Origin: an uncultured Anaeromyxobacteraceae bacterium
Lineage (GTDB): Bacteria > Myxococcota_A > UBA9042 > DTJE01
Direction: 5' to 3'
Assembly (NCBI GenBank): GCA_964522105.1
Contig: CAZFVA010000001.1
Location: forward strand, 80,343 to 144,342
Length of the DNA: 64,000 nt
The position numbers and the translations under genes are program-made. Below, piece by piece: positions 1-40,691 of this stretch; the first letter of the stretch is position 1; every line of letters begins with the position of its first letter. A model generated the notes under the pieces. That model had not been told where the DNA came from, did no database searches, and was given only the letters and a program-made list of their open reading frames with translations.

Positions 1-628
1 AGAAAAAGGCCATGAAATCGTGGTCATTGACGACCCCGACAAGATTCCTGATGACACCGATATCGGTCTGGATTTCAGTTTCCCGGGCGGCGGGCAAAAA
101 TTTGCGGCCGCCATGATTAAACGCGGTGCAGCACTTCTGACCGGTACTACAGGACTGGGCTCGACTGATGTCGTGGCGCTTTCAGAAGCGGCTTCCAGTA
201 TCCCGGTTCTTGTTACAACCAATACCAGCCTTGGCGTTTTCTGCCTTACCGAAATCTCGATGATGGCCAGGACCATCCTGGGTGATGAATATGACGTCGA
301 AATTCTGGAGATGCACCACAGGCACAAGGTGGATGCCCCTTCCGGAACAGCCATTTCGCTGGCCAACGCCCTTGGAACAACGGGACTTGATGTGAACCTG
401 AACCGTCAGGCGGCCAGAAAAGACAACGAAATCGGGGTCGCGTCCCTGCGCGGGGGCGAAGTAACCGGGACACATACGGTCTATTTTCTGGGAAAGAACG
501 ACCAGATCGAAATTACCCACAGGGCAACATCCAGACAGGTTCTGGCAGAGGGGGCAATCAGACTGGGCGTGGCTCTTGTGACGAAAGGCCCCGGGCTTTA
601 TGACGTTTCCGATCTTCTTCGTGGCTGA
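1..628 (+). CDS. dapB: 4-hydroxy-tetrahydrodipicolinate reductase (DapB), 5'-truncated by window edge
   Basis: Frame is open from position 2 to the window start (..EKGHEIVVIDD..). The C-terminal domain carries the DapB signature EILEMHHRHKVDAPSGTA. The track ORF 20..628 begins at an internal GTG. Confidence 0.9.
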   Translation, partial: EKGHEIVVIDDPDKIPDDTDIGLDFSFPGGGQKFAAAMIKRGAALLTGTTGLGSTDVVALSEAASSIPVLVTTNTSLGVFCLTEISMMARTILGDEYDVEILEMHHRHKVDAPSGTAISLANALGTTGLDVNLNRQAARKDNEIGVASLRGGEVTGTHTVYFLGKNDQIEITHRATSRQVLAEGAIRLGVALVTKGPGLYDVSDLLRG

Positions 629-1700
629 TCGTGTCCTTCCAGCTTCCCATAATCTCGAAGATGTTCATTCTGTTGACCATGTCCTGAAGAATGGCGGCAG
701 AACCATTGAATCCAAGATACGGTTTCGGATAAATCATGTGGGCTTCCCGGGCCGGAAAAGTTATTTCCAGAAAACCGGTGTCATCTGACAGGCACGCCAT
801 CGTGGCATCTGTGTTTCCGACGACCAGCATCACGTTTTCTGATTGGTCAGGGTCAGCGATTGCCGGCAGCCGCGACACATGGCCACCAAATCCGGTGATT
901 ACCTGCAGACACACATCACAACCGACTTCGCCCAGGAACTCGCGCATGGCGTCCACAAAAACGACATCCCCGAAAAGACCGATCCGCCTGTTCAGAAGGC
1001 TGTGCGGCACGACCCACTCGAATCTGGGGACAATCCTGGATATCTCGCGGCCGATAAATTCGGCAGCCGCCGGACCACGCCCGACAGACCGACCGACAAC
1101 ATGCATGAACTGAACACTTCCATCGAAGCCGAGCGGCAGGCCGACAGCGACGACACGGGCGCCGGTTCTGGCCGCAAATATGTCAGCAGCCTTCCGACCG
1201 TAAGGCATCGCCAGCAAAACACCTGACTGCCCCGCTGCGGCAAGATCTGCCGTCGAACACGGCGCCGGCCAGAAACAGGAAACCGACAGACCTGTTCCAT
1301 CCGAAATCATCCGCGTCAGCTCGTCGATGTCGGCCCGCGCATCCCACTCATTCCTGGTGACAGGAACGCCGAAAACCGCAACCGAATCTGGCGACGTCGC
1401 TGACCTGGGAATATCTATGGTTGCCGCAAGAAAACACAAGGCATCTTCAAAGCCACGAACCCAGTCGGCACCTTCAGAAGGCATCGATATTGCAAACGAA
1501 TCCGCATCAACCAGGCGCAGTCTGGCCACGAGGTCATGCGAAACTTTCAGATCATGACTGACCATCACGGCGACGGCGCTTTCGATCGCAGCATGGGTGA
1601 CGCCCCGCAGCGGAATCACAGCATCCGACACAAGATTGGCAACTACTGCCACGCCTTCAAGCCACGGACGGACAAATTCTTCACGCCTGATTTCCAGCAC
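558..1700 (-). CDS. Nitrogenase component-1-like subunit (NifD/NifE/NifK/BchN family) of a nitrogenase-like reductase
   Basis: 380-aa ORF whose start overlaps the upstream NifH-like gene by 20 nt. The C-terminal segment [21 protein letters not shown] resembles the conserved NifE/NifK C-terminal motif (..GPYHGFDGFAIFARDM..). There is no N-terminal Cys cluster, so the assignment is tentative. It overlaps dapB convergently by 70 nt. Confidence 0.5.
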
Positions 1701-2553
1701 CGAATGTCTCCTTGATGAAGTTTTCGAACTCGCGATCCACCATCGGGGTTGGAATTGGATGGCTGGAAGGACTGTCGTTCATCATAAGGTCCGCAAGATC
1801 CTTGAATATTTTCACAACATCAGATTCCGGGGCGATGGAAATTACCGGAACACCGGCAATTTCTGCCTGGCTTATCAACGGATCCCACGGAATCTTTGCG
1901 ATGATCTTGGTGCCAATCCGTTCTGCGAACAGGCGCATGCCTTCAAAATTCGTCTTCGAGCCGGTCGAATTCAGTATCAGACCACCAAGACCGATGCCGT
2001 TTGAAGCAAATCGTTTCATAGCCTTGGCGATATTGTTGGCCGCATAAAGGGCCATGATTCCATCGCTGACAACGATGTAAACCAGATCCGCCCTGCCCTG
2101 ACGCAGCGGGGCTGCAAATCCGCCACAGACAACGTCGCCCAGCACGTCAAAGATGGCGGCGTCGTAATCGCCTTCATCTATCAGTTCCAGTTCATCCAGA
2201 ACCTCGAACATTCTGGCAACGCCGCGACCGCCACAACCGACACCCGGTTCAGGGCCACCACACTCGATACAATCCAGACCGAAACGCCCCGGAAAAACGA
2301 TTTCGTCGGCGCGCTCGATCTTGCCCGACAGACGATCAATCACTGTTGAAATCTGCAAATCGCTGTCAAGTAACGTCCTGGTGGAGTCGGCCTTCGGGTC
2401 GCATCCAACATGAAGAACTTTCTTGCCACTGCTGGCCAGAACAGCACTCAGATTGGACGAAACGGTCGATTTGCCGATTCCGCCCTTGCCGTACAAAGCT
2501 ATCATTTTGGTCTTACGGGCCACGTGGTACTCCTTCGAACAAACTTTCTTCAC
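1681..2553 (-). CDS. NifH/BchL/CfbC-family ATPase (nitrogenase iron-protein-like)
   Basis: P-loop [10 protein letters not shown] and switch [10 protein letters not shown] are present. Both [4Fe-4S] ligand contexts match NifH closely: [16 protein letters not shown] and [14 protein letters not shown]. The alternative start MIALYGKGG at 2505 is also possible. Confidence 0.85.
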
Positions 2554-3248: not shown

Positions 3249-4829
3249 ATGAAAGTTAGATTAACACTGGCTGCCGGACTTGCTGCACTTGCATTTTCGG
3301 GAATCGTGGCGTGTTCAGGTGGAAACGGGACCGACGACCACAGCGGTATTCCTGACTTCATCATTCCAGACCGGGACATCGCCGAAGATAACGGTCAGGA
3401 CACAGGCGCCGATGTAAACCGGCCCGACGTCAACGATACGGTTGTCGGGACAGACGCCGATTCATCAGAACCGGATGCGACTGACAGCGGCGTAGACATC
3501 GGACCGGCCGACGAAGGTCAGCCTGACGAAGGCCAGCCCGACATCGGACACGATGACGGACCGCCGCCCACAAATTTCTGCAATTCGCTTAACGACTGCC
3601 AGCCTTACGAAGTATGCGACCTGTCACTTGGCCGCTGCGAAGAACGCACGTCTTACAAGACAATCGTCGGGACCGAGCAGCTTTTCGAGTTCCGCCCCCC
3701 GGAGGGCAGTGAAGGCGACTTCATCATCCTGGACGGACAGCGTTTGATGACAAGTTCCACGGGGTCAGCGGTCCGGGCCGACATCAATGGAAAACTGGTC
3801 GCAGGAACCAGTGTGCTTCACTCGACGATCGGGGCCCACCGCATCGTCGGCGTCGTTGGAAGTGACAGCGGAAAAGTCGGCGTAGTCTTCCAGAACGCCA
3901 CACCTATCTATCAGAAGTATCCGGATTCATTTGTAAATGGGGTATCAGGCGTCATCGATTGTGACAACTCGACACCCGCAAAAACGGGAACAGCGGGCGC
4001 ACTTGGTGATGTCGGACCTTATGCGGCGGGATATGTTGATTTCGTCGTTGACGACATGAGGGTCTACTATCCGGCAGAATGCGGCTCGATCAGAAGACCT
4101 GGAACCCCCGGGCAATACCCGCTTGTTGTAATCGTCGCGGAAAATCAGAACCCATCGTTCCCATTCATCAATTTTGACTACATGGGTCAGATGCTGGCCA
4201 CATGGGGATTCGTGACCGTATCGATTAAAGCCGAAATGGATGCCGAAACCTCAGCTTCCGCTGCAAAAGTACTTGTGGAGAAAATACCGGCCTGGATCAA
4301 CGCTGATCTTTCCGCCATGCACCCGGCCCTGACCGGCATCAGCACGACACCGAAACTGACGTGGGTGGCTTTCGGCACAGGCTCGACCACAATCAATGAA
4401 ATCGGCGCTAACGATGAAGGTAATGCGCTTAAGGACAAAGCGATCGCAGCCGTGGCCATTGCCCCGAGTCCGGCCTTGACCGATGATTGCAACCCTTCGT
4501 CTTTCCTGGCTTTATATGGCGCCCAGGACAAGATTGCCAACATCAATCTGGCTAATACGTCGTATGGCAACTTCAGTTCCCCGAAATGGCTGGTCAACAT
4601 CAAAGGCGGCAATCACAGCCTGTTCACGGACCATCAGATGTACTACGCCGGTGGCCTTGGATCTGTTGCTGACGGCGATCCGGTCGACATCATGCGCAAA
4701 GACCAGATGTACATGACCATCAGCATGCTGCTACCTTTCCTTCAGAGGGCTTTTGGGCTGAGCGAACCGTTCAGCGGCCAGCTTCAGACTGGAGTCGATA
4801 ACACATTGATCAAGGTTACCAAGGGCTGA
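3249..4829 (+). CDS. Secreted lipoprotein with acidic low-complexity tether; globular domain of unknown (possibly hydrolase) function
   Basis: Signal peptide plus lipobox MKVRLTLAAGLAALAFSGIVAC. About 90 aa of D/E/T/G-rich disordered sequence follows, including a GQPDEGQPD mini-repeat. Then a Cys-rich knot CNSLNDCQPYEVCDLSLGRCEER precedes a large globular C-terminal domain containing GGNHSLF. Confidence 0.7.
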   Translation: MKVRLTLAAGLAALAFSGIVACSGGNGTDDHSGIPDFIIPDRDIAEDNGQDTGADVNRPDVNDTVVGTDADSSEPDATDSGVDIGPADEGQPDEGQPDIGHDDGPPPTNFCNSLNDCQPYEVCDLSLGRCEERTSYKTIVGTEQLFEFRPPEGSEGDFIILDGQRLMTSSTGSAVRADINGKLVAGTSVLHSTIGAHRIVGVVGSDSGKVGVVFQNATPIYQKYPDSFVNGVSGVIDCDNSTPAKTGTAGALGDVGPYAAGYVDFVVDDMRVYYPAECGSIRRPGTPGQYPLVVIVAENQNPSFPFINFDYMGQMLATWGFVTVSIKAEMDAETSASAAKVLVEKIPAWINADLSAMHPALTGISTTPKLTWVAFGTGSTTINEIGANDEGNALKDKAIAAVAIAPSPALTDDCNPSSFLALYGAQDKIANINLANTSYGNFSSPKWLVNIKGGNHSLFTDHQMYYAGGLGSVADGDPVDIMRKDQMYMTISMLLPFLQRAFGLSEPFSGQLQTGVDNTLIKVTKG

Positions 4830-5029
4830 TTTCCCGCACGCCGGACACCTGTCGAATCCAGACAGCCACATTTTTCCAACACAACGTCAATGTATGAACA
4901 TCTTTATGATTTGTGGCCACCCGTCACATCTTGCGCTGGAAGCAAAATTAGACTAGTTGTGCCTGTTAAGGGCTGGCATTGTCCGGCCCGTTCCGGCGCC
5001 ACCCAAATTGTGGTGACCGTTTAGTTATA

Positions 5030-5055
5030 GCCGCCCCGTTTTCGAACGGGGCGGC
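5030..5055 (+). other. Perfect GC-rich stem-loop (11-bp stem GCCGCCCCGTT / AACGGGGCGGC, TTCG loop)
   Basis: Seen directly in the sequence. There is no downstream T-run, so it is either a factor-dependent or GC-type terminator for the upstream lipoprotein gene, or a regulatory hairpin in the leader of the next ORF. Confidence 0.5.
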
Positions 5056-5268
5056 AGCATGACCAGGGAAAAACGCTCGATGGACGACGGACCAAGAATT
5101 ATCCCCACCGACAAAGTCCTTTGCGGGGGAAAGTTTTTTCGTCTGGTCGCCGCATGCTGCCGTAACTGCACCGAACCTCAGTTCTGTCGGGAATTCTGGG
5201 ATTTTTTCCAAAAAAACGGTACTACTCCGCAGGAATACCTGCGAAAATTTGGCCTCGAGGAGGAAGGT

Positions 5269-5694
5269 ATGAAAAGAATCGTTTTCGACTGTGACCGCTG
5301 TGGCAAAAAGGACATCGGCGACCCTTTGACCATCTATTACATGGATGGTGAAAATGAAGGGATGCGCATGACGACTCCGGACTTTGCCAGCGTAGTCGAA
5401 AAAGCGGGCAAGATCCCGGTTTCCAAGGATTACCTTGGTGACATGCTTGAACTGCTGAACCGCCATGAAGGCTGGGAACACTACTGTTCTTCGTGCTTCA
5501 GAAAGGTTGTGCAGTCGGCGGTGGGCATTCTGGGACCGAATGCGAAATCTCGCAGAAAGGCCGGAGCTGACGCCACAATGTCTGCTGCAGGAAAGGCTCT
5601 TGCGGCCAAAAGCCAGCCTAAGCCTTTGACGCTCGAGCAGGAGATCCCCGCACCTTCGCCGGTCGGTCGGAAAAAGACACCGACTGCGACGTAA
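5269..5694 (+). CDS. Small zinc-ribbon-like protein with basic Ala/Lys-rich C-terminal tail
   Basis: Strong Shine-Dalgarno GAGGAGGAAGGT precedes the ATG at 5269. The protein has a CxxC...CxxC pattern (FDCDRCGKKD ... HYCSSCF) and a lysine/alanine-rich tail. The track ORF extends in-frame to 5059, and that longer form also has Cys pairs. The antisense ORF 4966..5832 is Arg-rich junk. Confidence 0.45.
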   Translation: MKRIVFDCDRCGKKDIGDPLTIYYMDGENEGMRMTTPDFASVVEKAGKIPVSKDYLGDMLELLNRHEGWEHYCSSCFRKVVQSAVGILGPNAKSRRKAGADATMSAAGKALAAKSQPKPLTLEQEIPAPSPVGRKKTPTAT

Positions 5695-5805
5695 TGGTGT
5701 CGCTGCATCGCCTTTACGCGGGGCCTGCTTTCGTATGACGGAGTCGGGCTGCTGCCTGTCTTCCCGAAGATTCCGTTTATCCAGGTATTTAGAGGTATCC
5801 ACATC

Positions 5806-7875
5806 ATGACTTGCAGAATTTCCACCAGACAATGCCTTTTCAGCGTTATGGCTGCAGGCCTGCTGCTTATGTCGACCGGCCTTACAACTGCCCGGGCCGA
5901 AGCAATTTTTCCGACTTCAAGCTACGGACAGATGCACGAAAAGCTACAGCGCCACGACCGGGCGTTTTATAGATTCCTTGCACTGCCGTTCGGATGGTCA
6001 CTTGAAGCCAACGTGATCTCGGATGGCGACAAGGCCCTGATTGTTCAATTTCTAGACCAGACAGAAAGCGAAGACGTCAAGGCAGTCACCGGGAAACACC
6101 CTTATGAAATGTTTACAAACTACGAAGAGCACGGTGACCTCGGCATGTTCGGCGGCGTTGCCATTGCTGGAACTGCCTTCAAATACATGACGCTCAAGCG
6201 CGACGGCGGCACGGCAGAACAGCTTGCCGAAGCCAGACACGACGTCGTGCGCGCAATCGAAAATCAACATATTTTCTGGGCCATCACGGGCGAACCTGGC
6301 GTTTTTGCACGCGGCATCCGCAGACTGGTCGATGAAGACCCGGAAGCCCCGCCGATACCTGACACGCCACGCGAACTGATTCCGCTGTTTGACGAGGCTG
6401 GAAAGCCCTACCCGTACGCAAAGGACAACGGCACCTGGCGCGATGACAATTCAAAGGGCGTGCTTCCCGCTGACACATGGATCTGGGTTGATTCCGCATC
6501 CAAGGACCAGCTTGTAGGACAGATTTTCGCGATGGTTCTTCTTTATGATGCGGCAGCGGGCGACCCAGATATCGACCAGTCGCTGATTGCTCAGATGCAG
6601 GCTGACGCCCGTGCCACAGCCGCGATGCTGATGACGATGCGCGACATTTCAACACTGGAAGGTCCCGCAGGTATTGGCGAATATGACCTGATCATCATGG
6701 ACGCGGACGGCCGCCCGACCTACCACCATGACATTAACCCGTACTCGCTTGAAAAGGTTTATCTGCCGACCGACGTCGGCTCTTACAACATGTTCAATCT
6801 GGCCGTGACGATGGGCGTAATGAAAGGTCTTTACCATGTGACAGGCGACGCGGACATTGAAACGTACACGTTTGGCGAACTGATGGGCAACCGCGGATAC
6901 CTCGACATGATGGACGCTCCGGTTGATGATCCGAACGTCATGGATTACATCTACGCCGACCTCAAGACCAACTATTCAAACGTAAACATGATTGCGACTG
7001 CGATCTGGCTGGCCCTTTACACTGAAAACGACCCGCTCGTTGAAGCCCCGCTTCAGAATTTCCTGGAAGATCGGTTCTGGAATCGCGAAGGAACGACCCG
7101 GACGGCCAGCATGTCCAAGATTCCGTTCTTTAACCTGGTGTGGATGGGCATTACTGACCGTGGTTTTACAAGAGACCTGGTTGATGAAACGGCCGCGCTG
7201 CTTTCAGCCTTCCCGCTTGGACCATATTTCAACAGCCGACGGATCATCAATTGCGACGAGACGGAACTGGCCGCCGGGCAGTGTCTGGCCGTGGACGACG
7301 AAACGATCATCACACTTGAAAACGGTCTGAACAGGGGAAACTGGCCGGTTTCAACGGTGGCTCTTGACCCGACAATCAGGCCCCCATCCAATTTTGACGC
7401 AAGGTCCGACCCGTTCGAAGTGAACGGCGGCGGCGGCCCGACCATGAATCCAGGCGGCGACCACATCGCGGCGTACTGGATGGGTCGTTACCTGTCAATA
7501 AATGCGGCCGGCACCTCATCAAGGTCACCGAACGCACGCACACACATGCAGGTGCCAGGCTTGACTGTAGTTGAAAACCCGCCGGAAACTGCCGAAATTA
7601 TTGATGTCGAGATTATTGAAGATGCGATTGCCACTGATCACGGGTCGATCACCGACATTCGGGCCGATTTGAACGCCACAGACCTCGCCGCCAGTGATAT
7701 TTCAACAACTGATGCGACGACAGGCACCGACGACGGCACTGAACAGAAACCTGGTTCCGGCTGCTCGGCAGCGGGGCCGTCTTCAGGCTCTGGCGCACTG
7801 GTGCTTATCATCCTTGGAATGGGCTTGATTTCATTCGTCGCTGTCCGAAAACGCCGCACTTTATCTGCTAACTGA
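5806..7875 (+). CDS. Secreted 689-aa protein of unknown function with MYXO-CTERM-like C-terminal sorting signal
   Basis: N-terminal signal peptide (..LLLMSTGLTTARAEA). The C-terminus GSGCSAAGPSSGSGALVLIILGMGLISFVAVRKRR is a Cys-containing motif followed by a hydrophobic helix and basic residues, the pattern of MYXO-CTERM-type signals. A T/D-rich linker precedes it. Confidence 0.75.
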   Translation: MTCRISTRQCLFSVMAAGLLLMSTGLTTARAEAIFPTSSYGQMHEKLQRHDRAFYRFLALPFGWSLEANVISDGDKALIVQFLDQTESEDVKAVTGKHPYEMFTNYEEHGDLGMFGGVAIAGTAFKYMTLKRDGGTAEQLAEARHDVVRAIENQHIFWAITGEPGVFARGIRRLVDEDPEAPPIPDTPRELIPLFDEAGKPYPYAKDNGTWRDDNSKGVLPADTWIWVDSASKDQLVGQIFAMVLLYDAAAGDPDIDQSLIAQMQADARATAAMLMTMRDISTLEGPAGIGEYDLIIMDADGRPTYHHDINPYSLEKVYLPTDVGSYNMFNLAVTMGVMKGLYHVTGDADIETYTFGELMGNRGYLDMMDAPVDDPNVMDYIYADLKTNYSNVNMIATAIWLALYTENDPLVEAPLQNFLEDRFWNREGTTRTASMSKIPFFNLVWMGITDRGFTRDLVDETAALLSAFPLGPYFNSRRIINCDETELAAGQCLAVDDETIITLENGLNRGNWPVSTVALDPTIRPPSNFDARSDPFEVNGGGGPTMNPGGDHIAAYWMGRYLSINAAGTSSRSPNARTHMQVPGLTVVENPPETAEIIDVEIIEDAIATDHGSITDIRADLNATDLAASDISTTDATTGTDDGTEQKPGSGCSAAGPSSGSGALVLIILGMGLISFVAVRKRRTLSAN

Positions 7876-7972
7876 CACCAAATAAGCTGAAATTCCCCGC
7901 ACACACGTTACATCTCTTGACCGGCCCCATAAATAACCACATCCTAGACATAGTTACCGGACGAATTGACCG

Positions 7973-9499
7973 ATGGGATTTGGATTTCCAGGCCTGAAAA
8001 AACTTAAAGATGCTTTCAATAAAGACCCGGGGGTACGTGCGCCAGCATCAGGCCTTGAAGGCCAGACCATTGACGGTCGATTCAAGGTAATCCGCAAAAT
8101 TGGCGTCGGCGGCATGGGTACAGTATATCTGGCGCGTCAGACCTCAATGGACCGGGATGTCGCGATCAAGGTTCTGAACCCTGACAAACTTGATGACGAC
8201 GACGCCAGAAAAAGGTTCAGGATTGAAGCCGCCGCCGTCAGCAAGCTGAAAAGCCCGCACACAATCAGCGTTTATGATTTCGGTGAAGACAATGAAGGGG
8301 AAATGTACCTGGTAATGGAGCTGCTTGAAGGCCGGCCGCTTGCAGACATAATCAAAACCGAAGGTCCACTGGACATCAATAAAGTCCTGAGAATTACCGA
8401 ACAGATACTGGATTCGCTTGGCGAGGCTCACAATGCCGGTATTTTGCACCGCGATATGAAGCCGGACAACGTGTTTGTCATGGAAACGCCGGGGACCGGC
8501 GTGTTCGTGAAAGTGCTGGATTTCGGGATCGCGAAACTTATGGGCGGCCCCGATGCAACCAGAACGTGGCCCGGGCTGGTGATCGGTACACCGGCATACA
8601 TGAGCCCTGAACAGGTAATGGGCAAGCGCCTGGATAACAGATCCGACCTGTACAGCGTCGCTGTCGTCATGTTTGAAATGCTTTCCGGCGGGCTGCCGGT
8701 GACAGGAAAAACACCGATCGAAATCGGCGTAAAGAAAGTTCGCAGCATGCCGTCAAAGCTTGCTTTCGTTAACGGCACAATCGCATATCCCGAAGGTGCA
8801 GATGCGTTTTTTGCCCGGACACTGAACCCGGATCCTGGAAAACGTCCAGCTAATGCAGCCGAGTTCAAGCAACTTATCCAGGATATGTTCGGGATTGATT
8901 TATCAGCAATCAGCGGTTCTGCTAATACCGCGATACAACTGCAACTTCCCAACATTGCGACCGCAGGCGACAGCATCACGACAACGCCGGCGAAAGTTTT
9001 CCTGACAGATTCAAACGCTATTGAAGCGGCCTTTGAGGCCGAAAGAAAGCGAACAGCGAAAAGCTCGGCGGGCGGCCCGCCGGAAGTCGATCGCAGATGG
9101 GCGATTCGCCTGCCCAAACTGTCATCGGTCAAATGCTATTACAACGGTTCCGAGTTTGATGGTACTGCGGGAAACATGAGTTCCTCGGGCGGGTTCATTC
9201 ATTCAACATGGCTGCCGGTCGTCAGTCACAGGGTAACAATTACGTTCACGTGTCCCGGCACAAAAGACTGGAATATTGGAATCCTGGCCGAGGTTGTCAG
9301 AACTTCCCAGGGTTCGGGCAATCCGGGAGACGTGCGCGGTTTTGGAGTTCGCTGGATAAAAATGAGAGCCCGTGGCGGACTGCCTTGCCTGACTAATTTT
9401 TTCACGTCGTCGCTGGGCAAAGACTTGAAGACATCCCTGCCAGAAGATACCAGCGCAAATCAATGGGAATACCTGTTTGCTGAATCCAAATTTGTTTAA
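7973..9499 (+). CDS. Eukaryotic-like Ser/Thr protein kinase fused to C-terminal PilZ (c-di-GMP-binding) domain
   Basis: Kinase subdomains are present: GVGGMGTVYLARQ, AIKVL, HRDMKPDNVFV, DFGIAK and GTPAYMSPEQ. The C-terminal ~110 aa carry the PilZ signatures RRWAIR (RxxxR) and NMSSSGGFIHS (D/N-x-S-x-x-G). Confidence 0.85.
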   Translation: MGFGFPGLKKLKDAFNKDPGVRAPASGLEGQTIDGRFKVIRKIGVGGMGTVYLARQTSMDRDVAIKVLNPDKLDDDDARKRFRIEAAAVSKLKSPHTISVYDFGEDNEGEMYLVMELLEGRPLADIIKTEGPLDINKVLRITEQILDSLGEAHNAGILHRDMKPDNVFVMETPGTGVFVKVLDFGIAKLMGGPDATRTWPGLVIGTPAYMSPEQVMGKRLDNRSDLYSVAVVMFEMLSGGLPVTGKTPIEIGVKKVRSMPSKLAFVNGTIAYPEGADAFFARTLNPDPGKRPANAAEFKQLIQDMFGIDLSAISGSANTAIQLQLPNIATAGDSITTTPAKVFLTDSNAIEAAFEAERKRTAKSSAGGPPEVDRRWAIRLPKLSSVKCYYNGSEFDGTAGNMSSSGGFIHSTWLPVVSHRVTITFTCPGTKDWNIGILAEVVRTSQGSGNPGDVRGFGVRWIKMRARGGLPCLTNFFTSSLGKDLKTSLPEDTSANQWEYLFAESKFV

Positions 9500-9520
9500 C
9501 GCCCTTCGTGAGGTGCCGTC

Positions 9521-10546
9521 ATGAACAGAAAATGTCTGGTGCTGCTGGCTGCAATGCTGTTTATCCCGACAGGCGCATTGGCCGATGTCGAAGGCAATCT
9601 GGCTGTCGAAGTCATCAAGCGGGCTGCCGGGGGAAGCGACACGCCGGCCGTCATCTTCAAAGCCATGGACACAGTTAGAAACCTGACAGTTGACGTCACA
9701 AAAACAGGCGGCGAGACGCTGACATATTCAAAAAAGGCCATGAGCAGGGGCGAATCATGGAAAGTCGCATGGCCACAGGCGCCGGGCCGCGCCTACTACC
9801 GCGTCGAATACAACTACGACGGCCTTTATGAGCCCCAGTCGATCGCGTTTTCGGCCGCCGTTGCCGAAGACTTTGATATCCAGGTGACGGCGTCGGACAT
9901 CGATCTCGATGCGGGGCATATCGGCTTCACGACGCGCGGCAAAGTCACAAAGGTGCAGGTCTGGCTGTTCGCGGTTGACGGGAAGGAAATTCTGAAGCGC
10001 GAGCTACGCATGGACCTGCCGAGCGGGCCATACAAAGGGCTTGAATACCCGGTGCCGGCGCAGGAAATCGGGCTGGTAAAAGTAGTCGCCGTTGACCCGA
10101 CCGACTTCACGAAAGAGCTGACATTCACGCCGATTTCGATGCCTGTTCCGCATGACGAAGTGAACTTCGAATTTGGAAAGGCCGACGTACGGGCGGCCGA
10201 AGAACCGAAGCTTGAAAAGGTGCTGGCCGAGACGGAAAAGGCCGTTGCCAACCTTGGAAAACAGATTCAATTCAAACTGTTTGTCGCCGGTTACACCGAC
10301 ACGGTCGGTTCGCATGAAGCAAACATCGAACTGTCCCGCAAACGCGCCGAATCGATCGCGGGATGGCTGCGTGGCCACGGCATGAAACTGCCTGTCTGTT
10401 CAAAGGGTTTTGGCGAAACGGTCCTGGCAGTGTCGACACCTGACGAAACCCAGAATGAACAGAACCGCCGCACAATCTTCGTAATCGCCGGTCAGGCCCC
10501 GTACGGTAAAGACTTCCCCGAAAACACCGGCTGGAACTGCAGGTAA
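9521..10546 (+). CDS. OmpA-family protein (periplasmic OmpA-like C-terminal domain, novel N-terminal domain)
   Basis: Signal peptide MNRKCLVLLAAMLFIPTGALA with SD GAGGTG. The C-terminal OmpA-like peptidoglycan-binding motifs are GYTDTVGSHEANIELSRKRAESIAGWL and NRRTIFVIAG. Confidence 0.8.
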   Translation: MNRKCLVLLAAMLFIPTGALADVEGNLAVEVIKRAAGGSDTPAVIFKAMDTVRNLTVDVTKTGGETLTYSKKAMSRGESWKVAWPQAPGRAYYRVEYNYDGLYEPQSIAFSAAVAEDFDIQVTASDIDLDAGHIGFTTRGKVTKVQVWLFAVDGKEILKRELRMDLPSGPYKGLEYPVPAQEIGLVKVVAVDPTDFTKELTFTPISMPVPHDEVNFEFGKADVRAAEEPKLEKVLAETEKAVANLGKQIQFKLFVAGYTDTVGSHEANIELSRKRAESIAGWLRGHGMKLPVCSKGFGETVLAVSTPDETQNEQNRRTIFVIAGQAPYGKDFPENTGWNCR

Positions 10547-10725
10547 CGCGACCGGTTGTCTGCCGTGGCGAGGAGATTTATTTACAAAGGCATCTGCGCC
10601 GCTCTCCAGCCGTTTAATGACAGCAACTGACAAACGCGCATTGACGTGCAGAATTCGGTCGTCAAAGCTTGAAATCGATTTATGAATCTGATAGAAAACT
10701 GCCGGGTAACAAATGGATACGATCA

Positions 10726-11586
10726 ATGAACGAAAAACCAGTCACCAGCATTTTTCCGTTAGCAACCGCATTAATTATCTTCGCGATTTCGGCAGGTTGC
10801 AGCAGCACACAGAACCAGCCTGACACATCGACTACCAATGACGTGTTGATAACAGCAGACCTGGTTCAGACACAGGATTTGGCAGCCTCTGACACAATAT
10901 CGGGACGCGACGAAAGTATAGGAAACGACTCCGGGGACATCGAAGATGACCTGAGCGCGACCGACACAACGCCCGTTGATACCGTAACACAGGATGAAGG
11001 TTCAACCGACGAAGGACAGACTGTCGCGGCCGGCCCTTATGGCCAGTGCGACGTGGACGGCGAATGTAACAGCGACGGATCCGGTCTGGAGTGTTTCAAG
11101 TTCCCCGACAGCAAGTTCGGCTACTGCACAAAAGGCTGCACAGAAAACAGCGACTGCCCGCAATCCCCGACATTGAATCCTGTTGGTTGCCAGAAGGACG
11201 GAGGCCAGACGACAGGCACATGCGTGTCATTATGCGGTGCCGTCGGCAACGAAAACCCGTGTCCGCCGTGGCTTGACTGCGTATCGAGCCAGTTCTGCCT
11301 GCCGCCTTCGACAACGATCGCGTCAAAGGAAGTTGGCGAAGCGTGCACAGGTCCTGCCGAATGTCTTTCCGGTGAATGTATTGAAGGTCAGGCAACCCGC
11401 GCCCACTGCGCCGGAAAGTGCGTCACGAACGACGATTGCAAGGGTCCGGAAGGCAAATGGAGCGGCACCTGCACTGCAGGCGGCGGCCTGTCCTACAACT
11501 TCTGCATTTACATGTGCGGCATGATGGCATCGGGCGCAGTCTGCCCCGGCGACCTCGAATGTGTCGGCATGTCGGTCTGTCAGTAA
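10726..11586 (+). CDS. Cys-rich secreted lipoprotein with D/T-rich acidic tether
   Basis: Lipoprotein signal MNEKPVTSIFPLATALIIFAISAGC. A long D/T/S-rich linker follows, then a domain with about 26 cysteines in repeated CxxxxDC / GxC patterns. The track ORF starts at 10669. Confidence 0.6.
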   Translation: MNEKPVTSIFPLATALIIFAISAGCSSTQNQPDTSTTNDVLITADLVQTQDLAASDTISGRDESIGNDSGDIEDDLSATDTTPVDTVTQDEGSTDEGQTVAAGPYGQCDVDGECNSDGSGLECFKFPDSKFGYCTKGCTENSDCPQSPTLNPVGCQKDGGQTTGTCVSLCGAVGNENPCPPWLDCVSSQFCLPPSTTIASKEVGEACTGPAECLSGECIEGQATRAHCAGKCVTNDDCKGPEGKWSGTCTAGGGLSYNFCIYMCGMMASGAVCPGDLECVGMSVCQ

Positions 11587-11605
11587 CCCTGCGAATTCCG
11601 CAAGA

Positions 11606-13288
11606 CTATCTCGTCAGCGACCGGTACCGGATGCGGTGGGGGGTGTCGGCTTCTTCGCCCATGCGTTCGCGGCGGTCTTTTTCGTAGTCCGAGTAGTTGC
11701 CCGGGTACCAGATGACGCTGCTGTCGCCTTCGAAGGCCAGGATGTGGGTCGCGATTCTGTCCAGGAACCAGCGGTCATGGCTGATGACCATCGCGCAACC
11801 GGCGAAGTTCAACAACGCGTCTTCAAGCGCACGCATCGTGTTGACGTCAAGGTCATTCGTCGGTTCATCCAGAAGCAGGACGTTAGCCTCGGTCTTCAGC
11901 ATCCAGGCCAGATGGACGCGGTTGCGCTCGCCGCCTGACAGTATCCCGACCTTCTTCTGCTGGTCCGGCCCGGTCAGGTTGAACCGCGCGACCCAGGCAC
12001 GCGAGTTCATTTCCACGCCGCCAATCAGAATCCTGTCCAGACCGCCGGTGATAACTTCCCAGGCCGTCTTTTCAGGGTCCAGAACGTCACGCATCTGGTC
12101 TGCACAGGAAACCTTGACGGTCGCGCCCAGAACAATTTCACCGGCGTCAGGCTTTTCCTGACCGGCAATCATCTTGAACAGCGTCGTCTTACCGGCACCG
12201 TTCGGGCCGACGATACCGACAATAGCACCAGGCGGCATCAGGAAATCCAACTTATCTATCAGAAGCCTGTCGTCGAATCCTTTGGACAGACCCTTTGCCT
12301 GGATAACGATGTCACCAAGCCGGGGACCCGGTGGAATATAGATTTCAAGGTCCCTGACCATCTTTTCAGGCTGTTTCGCCAGCAATTCTTCGTATGCCGT
12401 GACACGCGCCTTACCTTTGGCCTGACGACCACGCGGGGACATCTTGATCCATTCAAGTTCACGCGCAAGTGCCCGCTGGCGCTCACTTTCCGTCTTCGAT
12501 TCCTTGGCCAGGCGGTCCTGTTTCTGTTCCAGCCACGACGAATAGTTACCCTTCCACGGGATGCCTTCGCCACGGTCCAGTTCCAGAATCCAGCCGGCCA
12601 CGTTGTCCAGGAAGTAACGGTCATGGGTGACGGCGATTACTGTGCCACGGTAACGCTGCAGGTGCTGTTCAAGCCAGTGGACCGACTCGGCGTCCAGATG
12701 GTTCGTCGGTTCGTCCAGAAGCAGGATGTCGGGATTCTGCAGAAGCAGGCGGCACAGGGCAACGCGCCTGATTTCACCACCTGACAGAACCTTGATCGGC
12801 ATGTCCGGCGGCGGACAGCGCAGCGCTTCCATCGCCAGGTCGAGCTTGCTGTCCAGTTCCCATGCGCCCACGGCGTCCAGACGGTCCTGAACTTCGCCCT
12901 GCCGCTTCAGCAACTGGTCCATTTCTTCGTCGGACATCGGTTCGGCAAAACGCTCGTTGATAGCTTCATATTCTTCAATCAGCTTGACGATCGGGGCGGC
13001 ACCTTCGCGGACGATGTCAATTACGGTCTTATCCAGGTCGAGGTGAGGTTCCTGTTCAAGATAGCCGATCGTGAATCCCGGCGAACATGCCGTGTGGCCG
13101 ATGAATTCCGTGTCAACGCCGGCCATGATCTTCAGCAGCGTGGACTTACCGGAACCGTTGGCACCGATTACGCCAATCTTGGCCCCGTAAAAATACGAAA
13201 GGTACATGTCCTTCAGCACGGTTTTGGTCCCGTGAATCTTGCCGACACCTACCATTGAATAGATTACTTTCTGCGGATCGTCCGCCAT
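11606..13288 (-). CDS. ettA: Energy-dependent translational throttle protein EttA (ABC-F ATPase)
   Basis: 560 aa with two ABC cassettes. The N-terminus MADDPQKVIYSMVGVGKIHGTKTVLKDMYLSYFYGAKIGVIGANGSGKSTLL closely matches E. coli EttA (MAQFVYTMHRVGKVVPP..GAKIGVLGLNGAGKSTLL). Arm and linker lengths fit EttA. Confidence 0.9.
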   Translation of the reverse strand: MADDPQKVIYSMVGVGKIHGTKTVLKDMYLSYFYGAKIGVIGANGSGKSTLLKIMAGVDTEFIGHTACSPGFTIGYLEQEPHLDLDKTVIDIVREGAAPIVKLIEEYEAINERFAEPMSDEEMDQLLKRQGEVQDRLDAVGAWELDSKLDLAMEALRCPPPDMPIKVLSGGEIRRVALCRLLLQNPDILLLDEPTNHLDAESVHWLEQHLQRYRGTVIAVTHDRYFLDNVAGWILELDRGEGIPWKGNYSSWLEQKQDRLAKESKTESERQRALARELEWIKMSPRGRQAKGKARVTAYEELLAKQPEKMVRDLEIYIPPGPRLGDIVIQAKGLSKGFDDRLLIDKLDFLMPPGAIVGIVGPNGAGKTTLFKMIAGQEKPDAGEIVLGATVKVSCADQMRDVLDPEKTAWEVITGGLDRILIGGVEMNSRAWVARFNLTGPDQQKKVGILSGGERNRVHLAWMLKTEANVLLLDEPTNDLDVNTMRALEDALLNFAGCAMVISHDRWFLDRIATHILAFEGDSSVIWYPGNYSDYEKDRRERMGEEADTPHRIRYRSLTR

Positions 13289-25474: not shown

Positions 25475-26923
25475 ATGAAAGACATGAAGAACCTGCGATT
25501 TGCGATGTTACCGGCAGTCCTTATGGCCTTAAGTTTCGGCACAGGCTGCAGTTCATCGAATGTACCTGCTGATACGACTGTCCATCAGGATATTGTGGCT
25601 GACACAGGGACAGATACCGTTGCCGATGCGACCGACACAAATGTCCCGGACACAACTGACACAGCTTCGCCGGATGTTGTCACACCTGATGACAGCACCA
25701 TTGCTGATGATACCGAACCGGGCGATACCGCGGTTGACGCTTCCGACACCACGGACACAACACCTGAATTTGTCTGGGCTTCCGGCTGCGAAGGCAGCGG
25801 CACCGGCGCAGCGTGGACAATGATCGAAGACCATACTTTCCTGCGCGGCCCGCTGATTCAGATGTCCGACAGAAACACTGTCACCGTCGTGTGGCGCACC
25901 GCAGTCCGAAGTGACAACGAAGGCTGCGTTGACTACGAAGTCGACAGCGAAACGCTGACGGCATGTGGCATGGCCGACAAAAACGGCCAGTATGAAATCA
26001 CGCTGAATGACCTGCCGGTGGAAACTGAAATCACATACTCGGCGCGGGTTGGCGACGTGAAAACCGGTGATCTGACGTTCAGGACAATGCCGAACACCCC
26101 GAAGCCTATGAAATTTGCTGTATTTGCCGACGCCCACAACAACTTCGAAAACCTGCAGAAGATGACGGCCGTCGCGCTTGCCGAAGGCGTTGACTTCGCG
26201 TTCGGCGTCGGCGATTTCGTTCATCAGGCTGAAACCATTCAATATGACGAGTTATTTCAGGGATTCCAGGATCTTGGAAGCCGCGTAAACATCTGGAGCG
26301 TCATCGGCAATCATGACTCGGGCAGCGAAGAATACTTCGGTTCCTTCGTCGTCCCGGCAGGCAGCCAGGACCCGTATGACATCGAGCACGGATACGCGGA
26401 AGGCTGGTGGGATCGGCGCATCGGAAACGTCTGGCTTGGCGGCGGCTGGGTCCGCGACTTTTACATCTCGGGTCCCGATTCGGACTTCGGCGAAGTCGGC
26501 TGGTTCAGGCAGCAGTTCCAGAAAAACCATTTCAAGACGGCTCAGTGGAAGCTGTTCTTCATCCATGAACCGCCGTACTGCCAGGGCTGGGGCGGATGCA
26601 ATTATGACGGCGAATCGTGCCTGCGCCCGTCGCTGGTTCCGATGGCGGCACAGAACGGCATTCAGGCCACCTTCCACGGTCACATGCACGGTTATGAATA
26701 TGGCGAATCGGAAGGCGTCAAAATATTCATACCGGGCGGTCTGGGCGGCGAACTGGACTACTTCTGCGAAAACAGCACGCCCCCGCAGCCATGGGCATAC
26801 AATTACGTCCATAACTTCGCCATCGTAGAGACGAATTGCGACAAGATGATCGTCCGCTTCATGGGCCTTGACGGTGTTGAACTTGACCGCGTTGAAGTAC
26901 CGTATGTCGCCCCGACCGAATAG
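25475..26923 (+). CDS. Secreted metallophosphoesterase (calcineurin-like) lipoprotein, paralog 1
   Basis: Lipoprotein signal ..LSFGTGC and a D/T-rich tether. The metallophosphoesterase motifs appear in order: FAVFADAHNN (DxH), GVGDFVHQ (GDxx), VIGNHDSG (GNHD/E), FHGHMHGYEYG (GHxH). Confidence 0.8.
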   Translation: MKDMKNLRFAMLPAVLMALSFGTGCSSSNVPADTTVHQDIVADTGTDTVADATDTNVPDTTDTASPDVVTPDDSTIADDTEPGDTAVDASDTTDTTPEFVWASGCEGSGTGAAWTMIEDHTFLRGPLIQMSDRNTVTVVWRTAVRSDNEGCVDYEVDSETLTACGMADKNGQYEITLNDLPVETEITYSARVGDVKTGDLTFRTMPNTPKPMKFAVFADAHNNFENLQKMTAVALAEGVDFAFGVGDFVHQAETIQYDELFQGFQDLGSRVNIWSVIGNHDSGSEEYFGSFVVPAGSQDPYDIEHGYAEGWWDRRIGNVWLGGGWVRDFYISGPDSDFGEVGWFRQQFQKNHFKTAQWKLFFIHEPPYCQGWGGCNYDGESCLRPSLVPMAAQNGIQATFHGHMHGYEYGESEGVKIFIPGGLGGELDYFCENSTPPQPWAYNYVHNFAIVETNCDKMIVRFMGLDGVELDRVEVPYVAPTE

Positions 26924-26942
26924 CCCGCTTAGAGGTAACACA

Positions 26943-28322
26943 ATGAAAGACCTGCTGAATTTGCGACCGGTCGTGTTGATGGTGTTATTGGTATCAGTTT
27001 CCATGGTTTCAGGCTGTGCTTCGTCAGTGACTCCGACAGACACAGGCCGGGATATCATTGCCGACACTGCCGTTGCCGACACTGCCGTTGCAGATACCGC
27101 CGTTGCCGACACTGCCGTTGCAGATACTGCCATTGCCGATACTGCCATTACCGATACAACCCATGAATTTCAATGGGCTTCCGGCTGTGAAGGAACCGGC
27201 ACCGGCGCGACGTGGACATTAATCGAAGACCACACGTTCCTGCGCGGCCCCATGATACAGATGTCTGACTGGAACACGGCTACCATCCTGTGGCGAACCG
27301 CCGTCAAGTCCGACGAAGAAGGCTGCGTGGATTACGAAGTCGGCGCAGAAACCTTTACGAAGTGCGGGACTTCAGACAAACGTGGTCAGTATGAAATAAC
27401 GCTGGATGACCTGCCGGCCGCGACGGAAATCACCTATTCGGCCAGAGTTGGCGACATCAAGACGACCGATCTGACCTTTCGGACAATGCCTGACCGCCCG
27501 GCCCCGATGAAATTCGCTGTGTTTGCGGATGCGCACTGCAACATTGAAAATCTGAAGAAAATGACCGCGGTGGCACTGGCCGAAGGAGTCGATTTTGCGT
27601 TCGGCATTGGCGATTTCATCAATACCCCGGAAGACGTCCAGTTCGACCAGGTGTTTGAAGGACTCCAGGACCTTGGAAGCCGCGTAAATATCTGGGCCGT
27701 GCTTGGTAATCATGACACCGGCGGCATGTATTTCTACAACGCTTTTGCACTGCCGAAGGGCAACACGATCGAACCCGACTACAGCAATGGCTATGGCGAG
27801 GCCTGGTGGGACAAGCGGATCGGCAACGTCTGGCTTGGCGGCGGGTGGGTCATTCCATTCCTTTTCGGGGAGCCTGAAGGGGTTGAAAGCGAACAGAGCT
27901 GGTTCAGGCAACGCTTCCAGGAAGATCACTTCAAAACGGCTCAGTGGAAACTGTTTTTCATACACGAACCGCCTTACTGTCAGGGCTGGGGCGGATGCAA
28001 CTATGACGGCGAAGAGTGCCTGCGCGAATCCCTGATGCCGATGGCAGCCGAAAACGGTATCCAGGCCACCTTCCACGGGCACATGCACGGCATAGAGTAC
28101 GGCGAAACGAACGGCGTCAAGGTGTTCATCCCGGGTGGAGTCGGCGGAGATCTGGACTACTTCTGCGAAAACAGCTCACCACCGCAGCCATGGGCATACA
28201 ACTACGTCCACAACGTCGCAATCGTCGAAACGAACTGCGACAAGATGGTCGTCCGCTTTCTGGGCCTCGATGGCGTTGAACTTGACCGCGTCGAAGTCCC
28301 ATGGGTCGAACCGACGCAATAA
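26943..28322 (+). CDS. Secreted metallophosphoesterase (calcineurin-like) lipoprotein, paralog 2 with tandem-repeat tether
   Basis: It has the same motif set as paralog 1: FAVFADAHCN, GIGDFINT, VLGNHDTG, FHGHMHGIEYG. After the tether the two proteins are largely collinear and appear roughly two-thirds identical by eye. The signal is MKDLLNLRPVVLMVLLVSVSMVSGC. The tether is a perfect (ADTAV)n repeat. The track ORF starts at 26868 and the likelier start is the ATG at 26943. Confidence 0.8.
   Translation: MKDLLNLRPVVLMVLLVSVSMVSGCASSVTPTDTGRDIIADTAVADTAVADTAVADTAVADTAIADTAITDTTHEFQWASGCEGTGTGATWTLIEDHTFLRGPMIQMSDWNTATILWRTAVKSDEEGCVDYEVGAETFTKCGTSDKRGQYEITLDDLPAATEITYSARVGDIKTTDLTFRTMPDRPAPMKFAVFADAHCNIENLKKMTAVALAEGVDFAFGIGDFINTPEDVQFDQVFEGLQDLGSRVNIWAVLGNHDTGGMYFYNAFALPKGNTIEPDYSNGYGEAWWDKRIGNVWLGGGWVIPFLFGEPEGVESEQSWFRQRFQEDHFKTAQWKLFFIHEPPYCQGWGGCNYDGEECLRESLMPMAAENGIQATFHGHMHGIEYGETNGVKVFIPGGVGGDLDYFCENSSPPQPWAYNYVHNVAIVETNCDKMVVRFLGLDGVELDRVEVPWVEPTQ
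27058..27156 (+). repeat. In-frame tandem repeat, 15-bp unit (gccgacactgccgtt and variants), about 6.5 copies, encoding (ADTAV/ADTAI)n
   Basis: Seen directly in the sequence: ccgacactgccgttg x2, cagataccgccgttg, ccgacactgccgttg, cagatactgccattg, ccgatactgccatta. It sits in the lipoprotein tether of paralog 2. The opposite strand yields the artefactual ORF MAVSATAVSAT.... Confidence 0.9.
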
Positions 28323-30196: not shown

Positions 30197-30356
30197 CAAT
30201 ATCAAGGGCACGCCCCGGGGCGCTGGAACAATCACATCGCTTCCCACAAACACAAAACCGCCATAAACACATCTACCCGATACGCAAATGCAGTGTTATC
30301 ATTTCGAAGTTCTTCCGTGTCGCCCCCAGCACCCTGACAGAATCCCGGAGGCTACG

Positions 30357-32705: not shown

Positions 32706-32769
32706 CCAGTCACAAAATCATAATCATCATATGAAGGAAACAGGAAGCATTACCAGCCATGGCGGCTCT

Positions 32770-34560: not shown

Positions 34561-34635
34561 GTCAAAATCCTTTTTCAGAGTGCCCTGGCAAAGGACAATC
34601 ATCTGGTAGTGTAAGTGCCGGTAACCTGGCACCAA

Positions 34636-39602: not shown

Positions 39603-40691
39603 TCAGACAGACACGCCGAATTCAGATGACATCAAACGCCTGAAGGCCTCTTTATCAAGAGCTTTTTCAAAGGCGGCTACCGGCTCGACCAGACCTGTCC
39701 TGACAAGGTTCAGAATACATTCGTCCATCCCGATCATACCCTGTGCGCCACCGGTCCTGATCTGGTTATCAATCAAATGAGCCTTGTTTTCCCTGATCAT
39801 GTTCGGCAGGCCCATCGTCCAGAACAGCAGTTCATAAGCCGGAACACGCCCGCCCGTCTTCCTTGGCAGAAGTTGCTGGGCCAGAATGCCGCGCAGCACC
39901 CCGCCGAACATGCTGCGTACTGCGTCCTGTTCATGAACGGGAAACACGTTAATCAGGCGATCCATGGTCCTGGACGCGCTGTTCGTGTGCATCGTTGAAA
40001 GGACCAGAATCCCGGTCTCGGCAGCCTGCAAAGCCATTGAAATGGTTTCAAGATCGCGCATTTCGCCGACCAGAATGATGTCAGGATCTTCACGCACGGC
40101 AACACGAAGCGCGTCGGCAAAAGACACCGCCGAATGACCGATTTCGCGCTGACTGATGCGACACTTTTTGTTTTCATAAACAAATTCGACAGGGTCTTCA
40201 ATCGTCAGGATGTGCAGCCTGCGCGTGTCGTTCAAGTGCTTAATCAGAGCGGCCAGCGTAGTCGACTTGCCGGACCCGGTCGGCCCTGTGACCAGCACAA
40301 GCCCGCTCGGATATTCAACCAGCTTCTTCAGGCGCTCGGGCATGCCGAGATCGGCCAGCGTCACTGTGGCATTCGGAATATGTCGAAAGACCGCAGCCGG
40401 ACCGTTTTCCTGCCTGAAAAGATTGACGCGGAAGCGCCCTACCCCTTCGCACTGGTAAGCCATGTCAAGGTCACCAGTTTCTTCCCAGTGCTTCCACTTC
40501 TCAGTCGGCACTATCGGCTTCATGCCAGCCATGAAGTCATCGGTAGATAAAGGCCTGATCCGAAGGGGCGAAAGGTCGCCTGATATCCTGTAAGTCGGCG
40601 GATTTCCAACAACATAATGCAAGTCGGATGCGCCCATTTCAAGGCCAAGCTCAAGCAGGGACGAAACGTCAGAAAGTACTGGATGAGCCAT
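39603..40691 (-). CDS. pilT: Type IV pilus retraction (twitching motility) ATPase PilT
   Basis: The ORF is near-collinear with canonical PilT: ASDLHYVVGNPPTYRISGD, GVGRFRVNLFRQENGPAAVFRHIP, GLVLVTGPTGSGKSTTLAALI, ILTIEDPVEFVYENKKCRISQREIG, REDPDIILVGEMRDLETISMALQAAETGILVLSTMHT, and the C-terminal AHLIDNQIRTGGAQGM. Confidence 0.9.
   Translation of the reverse strand: MAHPVLSDVSSLLELGLEMGASDLHYVVGNPPTYRISGDLSPLRIRPLSTDDFMAGMKPIVPTEKWKHWEETGDLDMAYQCEGVGRFRVNLFRQENGPAAVFRHIPNATVTLADLGMPERLKKLVEYPSGLVLVTGPTGSGKSTTLAALIKHLNDTRRLHILTIEDPVEFVYENKKCRISQREIGHSAVSFADALRVAVREDPDIILVGEMRDLETISMALQAAETGILVLSTMHTNSASRTMDRLINVFPVHEQDAVRSMFGGVLRGILAQQLLPRKTGGRVPAYELLFWTMGLPNMIRENKAHLIDNQIRTGGAQGMIGMDECILNLVRTGLVEPVAAFEKALDKEAFRRLMSSEFGVSV

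Follow-up and report, generated by a model that had tools for sequence, protein, structure and literature searches.

Among the major signalling systems of bacteria are cyclic di-GMP (c-di-GMP) and Ser/Thr phosphorylation by Hanks-type kinases, both of which have been expanded by myxobacteria; 24 PilZ proteins are known in Myxococcus xanthus. The M. xanthus kinase Pkn1 (MXAN_1467), described in 1991, has been recognized as a fusion of a kinase with a PilZ domain (PMC8316039, PMC8844925, bioRxiv 10.1101/814665), and Galperin and Chou listed it as one of the PilZ fusions for which a helix is predicted at the C-terminus (bioRxiv 10.1101/814665). Pkn1 is induced during development under the control of MrpC, and its deletion reduces sporulation (PMC8316039, PMC8844925). 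Its PilZ domain is reported to be devoid of the c-di-GMP motifs that are otherwise conserved, and no binding of the ligand is predicted for it (PMC8316039; PMC8844925). Here, we analysed a gene from an uncultured Anaeromyxobacteraceae bacterium (contig CAZFVA010000001.1), which lies in a stretch of 64,000 nucleotides (nt) referred to below as the window. [quoted passage not shown]

An earlier note on this DNA had reported such a kinase at positions 9090-9499. This interval is the 3' quarter of a single open reading frame (ORF) and covers the PilZ domain and the tail only, the kinase lying upstream and the gene starting at position 7973. The observation itself is confirmed: the locus encodes a real kinase-PilZ fusion with intact motifs. 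The PilZ domain had been assigned to the last ~110 residues, which is correct as to location and too short as to length, the domain and its tail making up the last ~135 residues. Minus-strand ORFs that overlap the gene (e.g., 9203..9463, 86 amino acids (aa)) were without support and were treated as spurious. The protein is identical to a 508-aa fusion that is already public and is annotated only as 'serine/threonine protein kinase'. The gene and its PilZ features are as follows:

7973..9499, plus strand: whole gene of a soluble Ser/Thr kinase-PilZ fusion of 508 aa, stop codon included (ORF list; Pfam Pkinase and PilZ matches)
9089..9379, plus strand: PilZ beta-barrel, aa 373-469 (Pfam PilZ match and predicted fold)
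9089..9109, plus strand: first c-di-GMP motif D-RRxxxR, here DRRWAIR, aa 373-379 (D373, R374, R375 and R379 invariant in 16 of 16 full-length sequences)
9173..9190, plus strand: second c-di-GMP motif [D/N]hSxxG, here NMSSSG, aa 401-406 (NMSSSGG, aa 401-407, extends to nt 9193)

The Pfam hidden Markov model (HMM) of PilZ, PF07238, gave 29.0 bits for the entire protein, and 31.8-32.0 bits when only the C-terminal ~145 aa were scored; the gathering cut-off is 22.5, so that the significant match on which the earlier note had staked its claim does exist. The same model matched the C-terminal region of 17 out of 17 family members, each scored singly. A model of the last 143 residues, computed by AlphaFold2 (AF2) from the 17-sequence alignment, reached a mean predicted local distance difference test (pLDDT) of 84.3 and a predicted template modelling score (pTM) of 0.76. 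It consists of six strands followed by a helix, that is, the six-stranded beta-barrel with a C-terminal alpha-helix by which the PilZ fold is defined. When this model was compared with the PDB using Foldseek, the top 34 matches were all PilZ domains, the majority from structures with bound c-di-GMP, and included those of BcsA, Alg44, PA0012, MotI, VCA0042/PlzD, PlzA, MapZ, MrkH and YcgR. TIGR02266, a Myxococcus paralogous family related to PilZ, gave 19.4-22.3 bits for a cut-off of 68.7, indicating a relative of that family and not a member. Overall, the C-terminal domain is a divergent PilZ, which nothing but the Pfam model and the predicted fold reveals as such.

The two ligand-site motifs have been defined as RxxxR on an N-terminal loop and [D/N]hSxxG, where h is hydrophobic (bioRxiv 10.1101/814665). 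Both were found, as RRWAIR and NMSSSGG, where the earlier note had seen them in the C-terminal part, with a spacing of 21 residues from RxxxR to NxSxxG. Their conservation was followed in 16 full-length sequences and in a wider set of 17 aligned C-terminal regions. Position 401 is N or D in all 16 full-length sequences, in which S403 and G406 do not vary. In the wider set, where the PilZ domains share 29-57% identity with the present one, R374, R375 and R379 are likewise invariant (17/17), S403 and G406 remain constant, and the second motif reads D/N/E-x-S-x-x-G in every region. Most members have M, L, I or V at the h position, and two have S. It should be noted that the bare pattern R...R.{15,35}[DN].S..G was rejected as evidence of a PilZ domain, being weak by itself: in the 51,043 residues of the six-frame open stretches of the window it matched four times, and three of these matches fall outside the kinase-PilZ gene, in other frames. 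The assignment goes beyond chance because the Pfam score, the 17 family matches, the predicted fold and the invariant motif residues agree; RxxxR and the [D/N]xSxxG motif are conserved family features set in a PilZ-type beta-barrel, in agreement with the PilZ domain called in the earlier note.

The N-terminal part of the protein is a Hanks-type kinase, with the canonical core (HRDMKPDN, DFG and SPEQ) that had been noted before:

8081..8872, plus strand: Hanks-type protein kinase domain, aa 37-300 (PF00069)
8102..8128, plus strand: Gly-rich ATP loop GVGGMGTVY, aa 44-52 (G46, G47, G49 and V51 invariant)
8159-8176, plus strand: VAIK motif with lysine K66 (invariant)
8447..8470, plus strand: catalytic loop HRDMKPDN, aa 159-166 (H159, R160, D161, K163 and N166 invariant)
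8519..8614, plus strand: activation segment, beginning with DFG (aa 183-185) and ending with SPE (aa 211-213) (D183, F184, G185, T206, S211, P212 and E213 invariant)

The invariance given for these features refers to the 16 full-length sequences, in which the alphaC glutamate E85, D225 and R291 are invariant as well. PF00069 matched aa 37-300 with 158.9 bits (cut-off 31.7; E 2.1e-46) over profile positions 1-256 of 263. The best NCBIfam model was that of the PknB/Stk1 PASTA kinases, NF033483, which aligned over the kinase domain only (aa 30-306, profile positions 2-269 of 563) and scored 289 bits, below the cut-off of 450 for membership. The kinase is of the RD type. Its activation segment holds ATRTWPG (aa 195-201) and GTPAYMSPEQ (aa 205-214), and the TRT motif of the activation loop (aa 196-198) is reminiscent of the TxT sites at which PknB autophosphorylates; of the 16 full-length sequences, 14 have Thr, one has Ser and one has Ala at position 198. 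In the AF2 model the pLDDT of the kinase domain is ~67-94 per 10-residue block, with the exception of the activation loop (aa 184-204, <50), as is usual for unphosphorylated activation loops. Judged by these residues, the kinase is predicted to be catalytically competent.

The two domains are joined by a long tether, and the PilZ barrel is followed by an extension:

8915..9088, plus strand: disordered, poorly conserved linker, aa 315-372 (low pLDDT; gappy and variable alignment)
9380..9481, plus strand: C-terminal extension with a helix (aa 470-481), a loop and an extra beta-strand (aa 494-503), present in both AF2 models
9464-9478, plus strand: WEYLF on the extra strand, aa 498-502 (W498, E499 and F502 invariant in 16 of 16)

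The pLDDT stays below 50 across aa 315-381. The linker of the present protein is Ser/Thr-rich (...SAISGSANTAIQ...TAGDSITTTPAK...) and abuts, at its end, the RRxxxR 'switch' loop; those of its relatives range from 60 to ~330 aa and are Pro-rich, the Pro-rich stretch reaching ~300 aa in the wider relatives. The extra strand follows the usual PilZ helix in the models, and its WE[YFW]xF motif occurs in 16 of the 17 regions of the wider set, while it is absent from the distant kinase-PilZ proteins of two further loci (L096 and L097). No transmembrane segment was found, the highest Kyte-Doolittle mean over 19 residues being 1.43 and falling inside the kinase fold, and Pfam and NCBIfam scans of the protein revealed no sensor domain other than PilZ. 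The protein is thus a soluble kinase carrying a PilZ domain on a flexible tether. At the other end, aa 1-16 (nt 7973-8020, plus strand) contain a conserved M-x-F-x-x-[PK]-x-[LF]-x-[KR] with a short predicted helix (aa 8-15) before the kinase, which could serve in docking or in association with the membrane.

When 1.84 billion cluster representatives were searched exhaustively with the profile, 2,140 PilZ-type matches were obtained at E <= 0.001. Only 16 of them reached E <= 1e-30, and these correspond to the kinase-PilZ family, fragments included; tandem-PilZ proteins of 270-300 aa make up most of the tier below. Full-length relatives share 45-56% identity with the present protein, apart from one at 95%, and come from metagenomes and metagenome-assembled genomes, the named ones being labelled Myxococcota. 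Distant relatives reach a total length of 753 aa, with kinase domains ~45-48% and PilZ regions ~29-37% identical. Further kinase-PilZ fusions were recognized by Pfam (P0131, P0132, P0138, P0155, P0201 and P0260); in P0137, only the kinase domain passed the Pfam threshold used. The specific family is therefore rare, small and drawn from uncultured Myxococcota, and the fusion itself recurs. The earlier note had called such fusions rare and mostly uncharacterised; this is fair only as regards biochemistry, the architecture being known from Pkn1. Two other searches did not extend the distribution. A contig scan with the full-length alignment, driven by generic kinase motif patterns, returned 80 loci of ordinary kinases, in none of which tblastn detected the C-terminal domain. 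A word-indexed search with the C-terminal profile returned 8 short PilZ proteins only and missed known family members, which makes it uninformative on distribution.

Immediately downstream lies a second gene of the same orientation:

9521..10546, plus strand: OmpA-like exported protein, 341 aa, 22 nt downstream of the kinase gene (PF00691)

Its product has a signal peptide, an N-terminal part of ~190 aa that belongs to no family and a C-terminal OmpA peptidoglycan-binding domain (PF00691, E 2.8e-10, aa 216-316), the latter alone being matched by NCBIfam models of OmpA-type lipoproteins. In six other lineages (L001/L002, L005, L092, L093, L094 and L095), the kinase-PilZ gene is followed, at a distance of 20-86 nt, by a full-length orthologue (44-56% identity). 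Overall, the pairing occurs in 7 of the 10 lineages of the family, including ones whose PilZ domain is only 32-37% identical, and beyond the pair there is usually an EttA gene in convergent orientation. The genes upstream of the kinase, encoding proteins of 689 and 211 aa, are conserved mainly among the closest relatives and were rejected as parts of the core module, whereas the OmpA-like gene persists in distant lineages. The kinase-PilZ and OmpA-like genes are therefore taken as a conserved two-gene module, and the other neighbours as lineage synteny. The pairing hints that the output of the kinase is related to the cell envelope or surface.

Given these features, we consider it on balance probable that c-di-GMP binds to the PilZ domain and thereby changes the output of the kinase. 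We infer binding at the RRxxxR/[D/N]hSxxG site because the motif is intact under purifying selection. The doubled arginine of RRxxxR suggests, by analogy with PP4397 and VCA0042-L135R (PDB 3KYF and 3KYG, both among the Foldseek matches), that the ligand would be bound as an intercalated dimer. PilZ would act as the sole recognizable sensor module of the kinase, held on a flexible linker of ~60 residues. Since this linker is long, disordered and variable in length, rigid coupling is less likely, and ligand-driven self-association or relocalisation of the PilZ domain is favoured over a rigid allosteric hinge of the YcgR or BcsA type. Self-association could bring two RD-type kinase domains together and so allow trans-autophosphorylation of the activation loop at the conserved Thr198. 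Relocalisation could bring the kinase to a partner or substrate via the C-terminal helix and the tail, the PilZ C-terminal helix being a documented partner-binding surface, as in MapZ-CheR1 (bioRxiv 10.1101/814665). In either case, Ser/Thr phosphorylation would have an envelope- or surface-related output, as the operon-like pairing with the OmpA-like gene suggests.

Several points weigh against c-di-GMP control of this kinase. Pkn1, the only studied kinase-PilZ protein, is a predicted non-binder, and PlpA of M. xanthus has a PilZ domain whose motifs are intact and which reportedly fails to bind c-di-GMP (PMC8316039). The PilZ assignment itself is distant: the HMM score is modestly over the threshold, Foldseek E-values are only ~0.01, and a search of PDB sequences with the C-terminal profile found no solved PilZ, giving chance-level matches only (mitoribosomal uS14m, BACH1). 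Moreover, two relatives outside the 17-sequence set carry Asn instead of Ser in the second motif, which indicates that some erosion of the ligand site occurs and may represent partial decay toward a Pkn1-like state. These are P0137 (L093, 6001-7731), with EVNIRG, and P0201 (L097, 5001-6698), with DVNEAG, and both keep RRxxxR. With regard to the partner gene, the pairing is absent from 3 of the 10 family lineages (L003/L004, L006 and L091), and also from the two distant loci L096 and L097, where the kinase-PilZ proteins are tail-less. Export rules out the mature OmpA-like protein as a direct substrate, and it is more likely a co-functioning component. The use of c-di-GMP by the host organism is assumed from its relatives, because the ORFs that were scanned in the window included no GGDEF, EAL or HD-GYP gene. 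Finally, dimerisation and relocalisation are proposed by analogy only, and either specific mechanism is less probable than ligand control as such.

As for the relatives, a gene for an FHA-GGDEF protein and a separate PilZ gene lie in L003/L004 (1-1316, minus strand), ~7 kb upstream of the family member P0014, and a HAMP-GGDEF gene lies ~7 kb upstream of P0015 in L006. Related genomes thus have c-di-GMP metabolism.

The main alternative, which we judge rather unlikely, is that the PilZ domain serves as a ligand-independent protein-interaction or adaptor module that targets the kinase to a partner, c-di-GMP playing no part. Such a role has been proposed for the degenerate PilZ domain of Pkn1 and resembles that of the Xanthomonas PilZ protein that binds FimX and PilB. 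It would account for a Pkn1 that lacks the binding motifs and yet functions in development, and for a PlpA that has the motifs and was reported as a non-binder. The invariant, family-specific WE[YFW]xF strand and the C-terminal helix also resemble an interaction surface, the PilZ C-terminal helix being known to mediate partner binding (bioRxiv 10.1101/814665). However, if the ligand were irrelevant, the constancy of R374, R375, R379, S403 and G406, together with D, N or E at position 401, would be left unexplained in domains of 29-57% identity, whereas the motifs have decayed in PilZ domains known as non-binders (bioRxiv 10.1101/814665). Partner and ligand binding are also compatible with each other: MapZ, whose complex is among the Foldseek matches (PDB 5XLY), binds CheR1 only when loaded with c-di-GMP.

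A reversed direction of control appears improbable. The kinase would then tune c-di-GMP binding by phosphorylating either the linker or PilZ domain of its own chain or a PilZ protein nearby, and the fusion protein would be a c-di-GMP sink or effector under the control of phosphorylation. The Ser/Thr-rich linker, which ends at the 'switch' loop, would suit this, and the computed results do not tell input from output; however, the linker sequence is unconserved, the relatives being Pro-rich and not Ser/Thr-rich with no conserved acceptor, and the kinase would be left with no other sensor domain as its input. That the kinase is a dead pseudokinase scaffold, or that an unrelated C-terminal region matches the PilZ motifs by chance, is very improbable: the pattern does match at three further places in the six-frame translation and solved PilZ chains gave no sequence match, but the pseudokinase is rejected because every canonical catalytic residue is present and invariant, and chance is countered by HMM scores above the curated cut-off in 17 of 17 regions and a modelled fold whose best matches are solved PilZ structures.

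With c-di-GMP control of the kinase kept as the preferred reading, a wider proposal can be put forward tentatively. It is possible that this protein represents the first eukaryotic-type Ser/Thr kinase controlled by c-di-GMP through a PilZ domain, that it acts in a two-gene module with the OmpA-like protein on the envelope or surface, and that its ligand-responsive form is ancestral to the motif-less PilZ of Pkn1.

The remaining neighbours of the pair were also inspected. The 689-aa protein encoded upstream (5806-7875, plus strand) is exported and belongs to no Pfam or NCBIfam family. Its C-terminus (…GSGCSAAGPSSGSG, then a hydrophobic helix and RKRR) resembles a MYXO-CTERM-type sorting tail, for which no HMM match was obtained; only L001 and L005 have orthologues (60-63% identity) upstream of the kinase gene. 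The 211-aa protein (5059-5694, plus strand) is cytoplasmic, Cys-rich and of no family. It is 72-76% identical in L001 and L005, compared with 49-63% for the adjacent genes, and the distant locus L092 has an orthologue of 49% identity, which lies upstream of the kinase gene by a few kb. A Cys-rich putative lipoprotein of 305 aa (10669-11586, plus strand), likewise of no family, has its gene inserted here after the OmpA-like gene and before the EttA gene convergent with it, and is absent from that position in L001, L005, L092, L093 and L095. A promoter and terminator scan of 4800-11800 gave counts at the shuffle background, which leaves the short intergenic gaps as the only indication of transcription units.

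The window is otherwise an ordinary piece of chromosome, with a dcw cluster, glnA, nifU/nifS and the EttA gene. The FtsZ encoded in it shares 62% identity with the nearest named relative, which comes from a Myxococcota metagenome-assembled genome, so that the host is placed as an uncultured, deep-branching member of this phylum. At 558-2553 (minus strand), a NifH-like ATPase gene stands beside one for a nitrogenase-component-1-like protein, forming a nitrogenase-like reductase pair that is also present in L001; the nearest models of the ATPase are nifH (288 bits) and the F430 enzyme CfbC (280 bits), both below cut-off. Two adjoining genes at 39603-42553 (minus strand) encode secretion ATPases of the T2SSE family (PilB/PilT-like), the larger of 619 aa with N-terminal HEAT repeats. 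Tandem paralogous genes for calcineurin-like phosphoesterases of 482 and 484 aa are found at 25475-28322 (plus strand), where the listed ORFs overlap by ~55 nt. The region 30288-34635 holds genes for an 805-aa protein with repeated MopE-type metal-binding motifs (plus strand) and for a 620-aa protein with trypsin and disintegrin domains (minus strand), both of an unusual, secreted and eukaryote-like domain composition.

Direct control by c-di-GMP is established for histidine kinases, and in the open-access full-text literature searched we found no report of a Hanks-type Ser/Thr kinase regulated by c-di-GMP, whether through PilZ or otherwise. Soluble and only 508 aa long, the present protein combines intact motifs with a kinase that looks active and a neighbour that is conserved, and offers a simple and compact object on which a link between c-di-GMP and Ser/Thr phosphorylation can be tested. 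If the reading is true, second-messenger levels would be written into the Ser/Thr phosphorylation that governs envelope or surface behaviour. If binding fails, the protein would be another case, like PlpA, of motifs without binding, which is relevant to the way PilZ annotations are read. In addition, the kinase-PilZ family provides a comparison for understanding the degenerate PilZ domain of Pkn1.

Compared with known systems, the present protein shares with the c-di-GMP-regulated histidine kinases (CckA and ShkA of Caulobacter, SgmT of M. xanthus [cited in PMC8316039, ref. 7], RavS of Xanthomonas) the concept that the c-di-GMP level would act on protein phosphorylation by direct binding to a kinase. 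It differs from them in that Ser/Thr phosphorylation takes the place of their His-Asp phosphorelay, and a PilZ domain that of their binding modules, which are the catalytic ATP-binding domain, a pseudo-receiver, a GGDEF I-site or PAS. The PknB/Stk1-type kinases are the nearest group for the kinase domain, and they have in common with it the RD type, the activation-loop Thr and a sensor placed C-terminal to the kinase; for PknB and PknD, activation by sensor-driven dimerisation is the established model. Unlike these, our protein has no transmembrane helix and no PASTA repeats, and its sensor is cytoplasmic and putatively nucleotide-binding instead of extracellular.

The likeness to canonical PilZ receptors (PlzD/VCA0042, PA0012, MapZ, YcgR, MotI and PlzA, as well as the PilZ domains of BcsA and Alg44) lies in the six-stranded barrel with its C-terminal helix, in RxxxR on a flexible N-terminal loop and in [D/N]hSxxG ending strand 2. 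As in BcsA and Alg44, the PilZ domain is fused to the protein that it presumably regulates. Here, however, the fused output is a Hanks-type kinase, a further conserved strand is added at the C-terminus, and a long disordered tether contrasts with the tight domain junctions of BcsA or YcgR.

The closest counterpart remains Pkn1, also from the phylum Myxococcota, with its N-terminal Hanks kinase, linker and C-terminal PilZ domain with a predicted C-terminal helix; a membrane anchor has not been described for it. Both PilZ motifs are intact and family-invariant in the present protein, unlike in Pkn1 as published. The architecture was therefore already known, and what sets the present protein apart is the intact and conserved ligand site and, presumably, its WE[YFW]xF strand, which is invariant, together with the gene for an OmpA-like partner.

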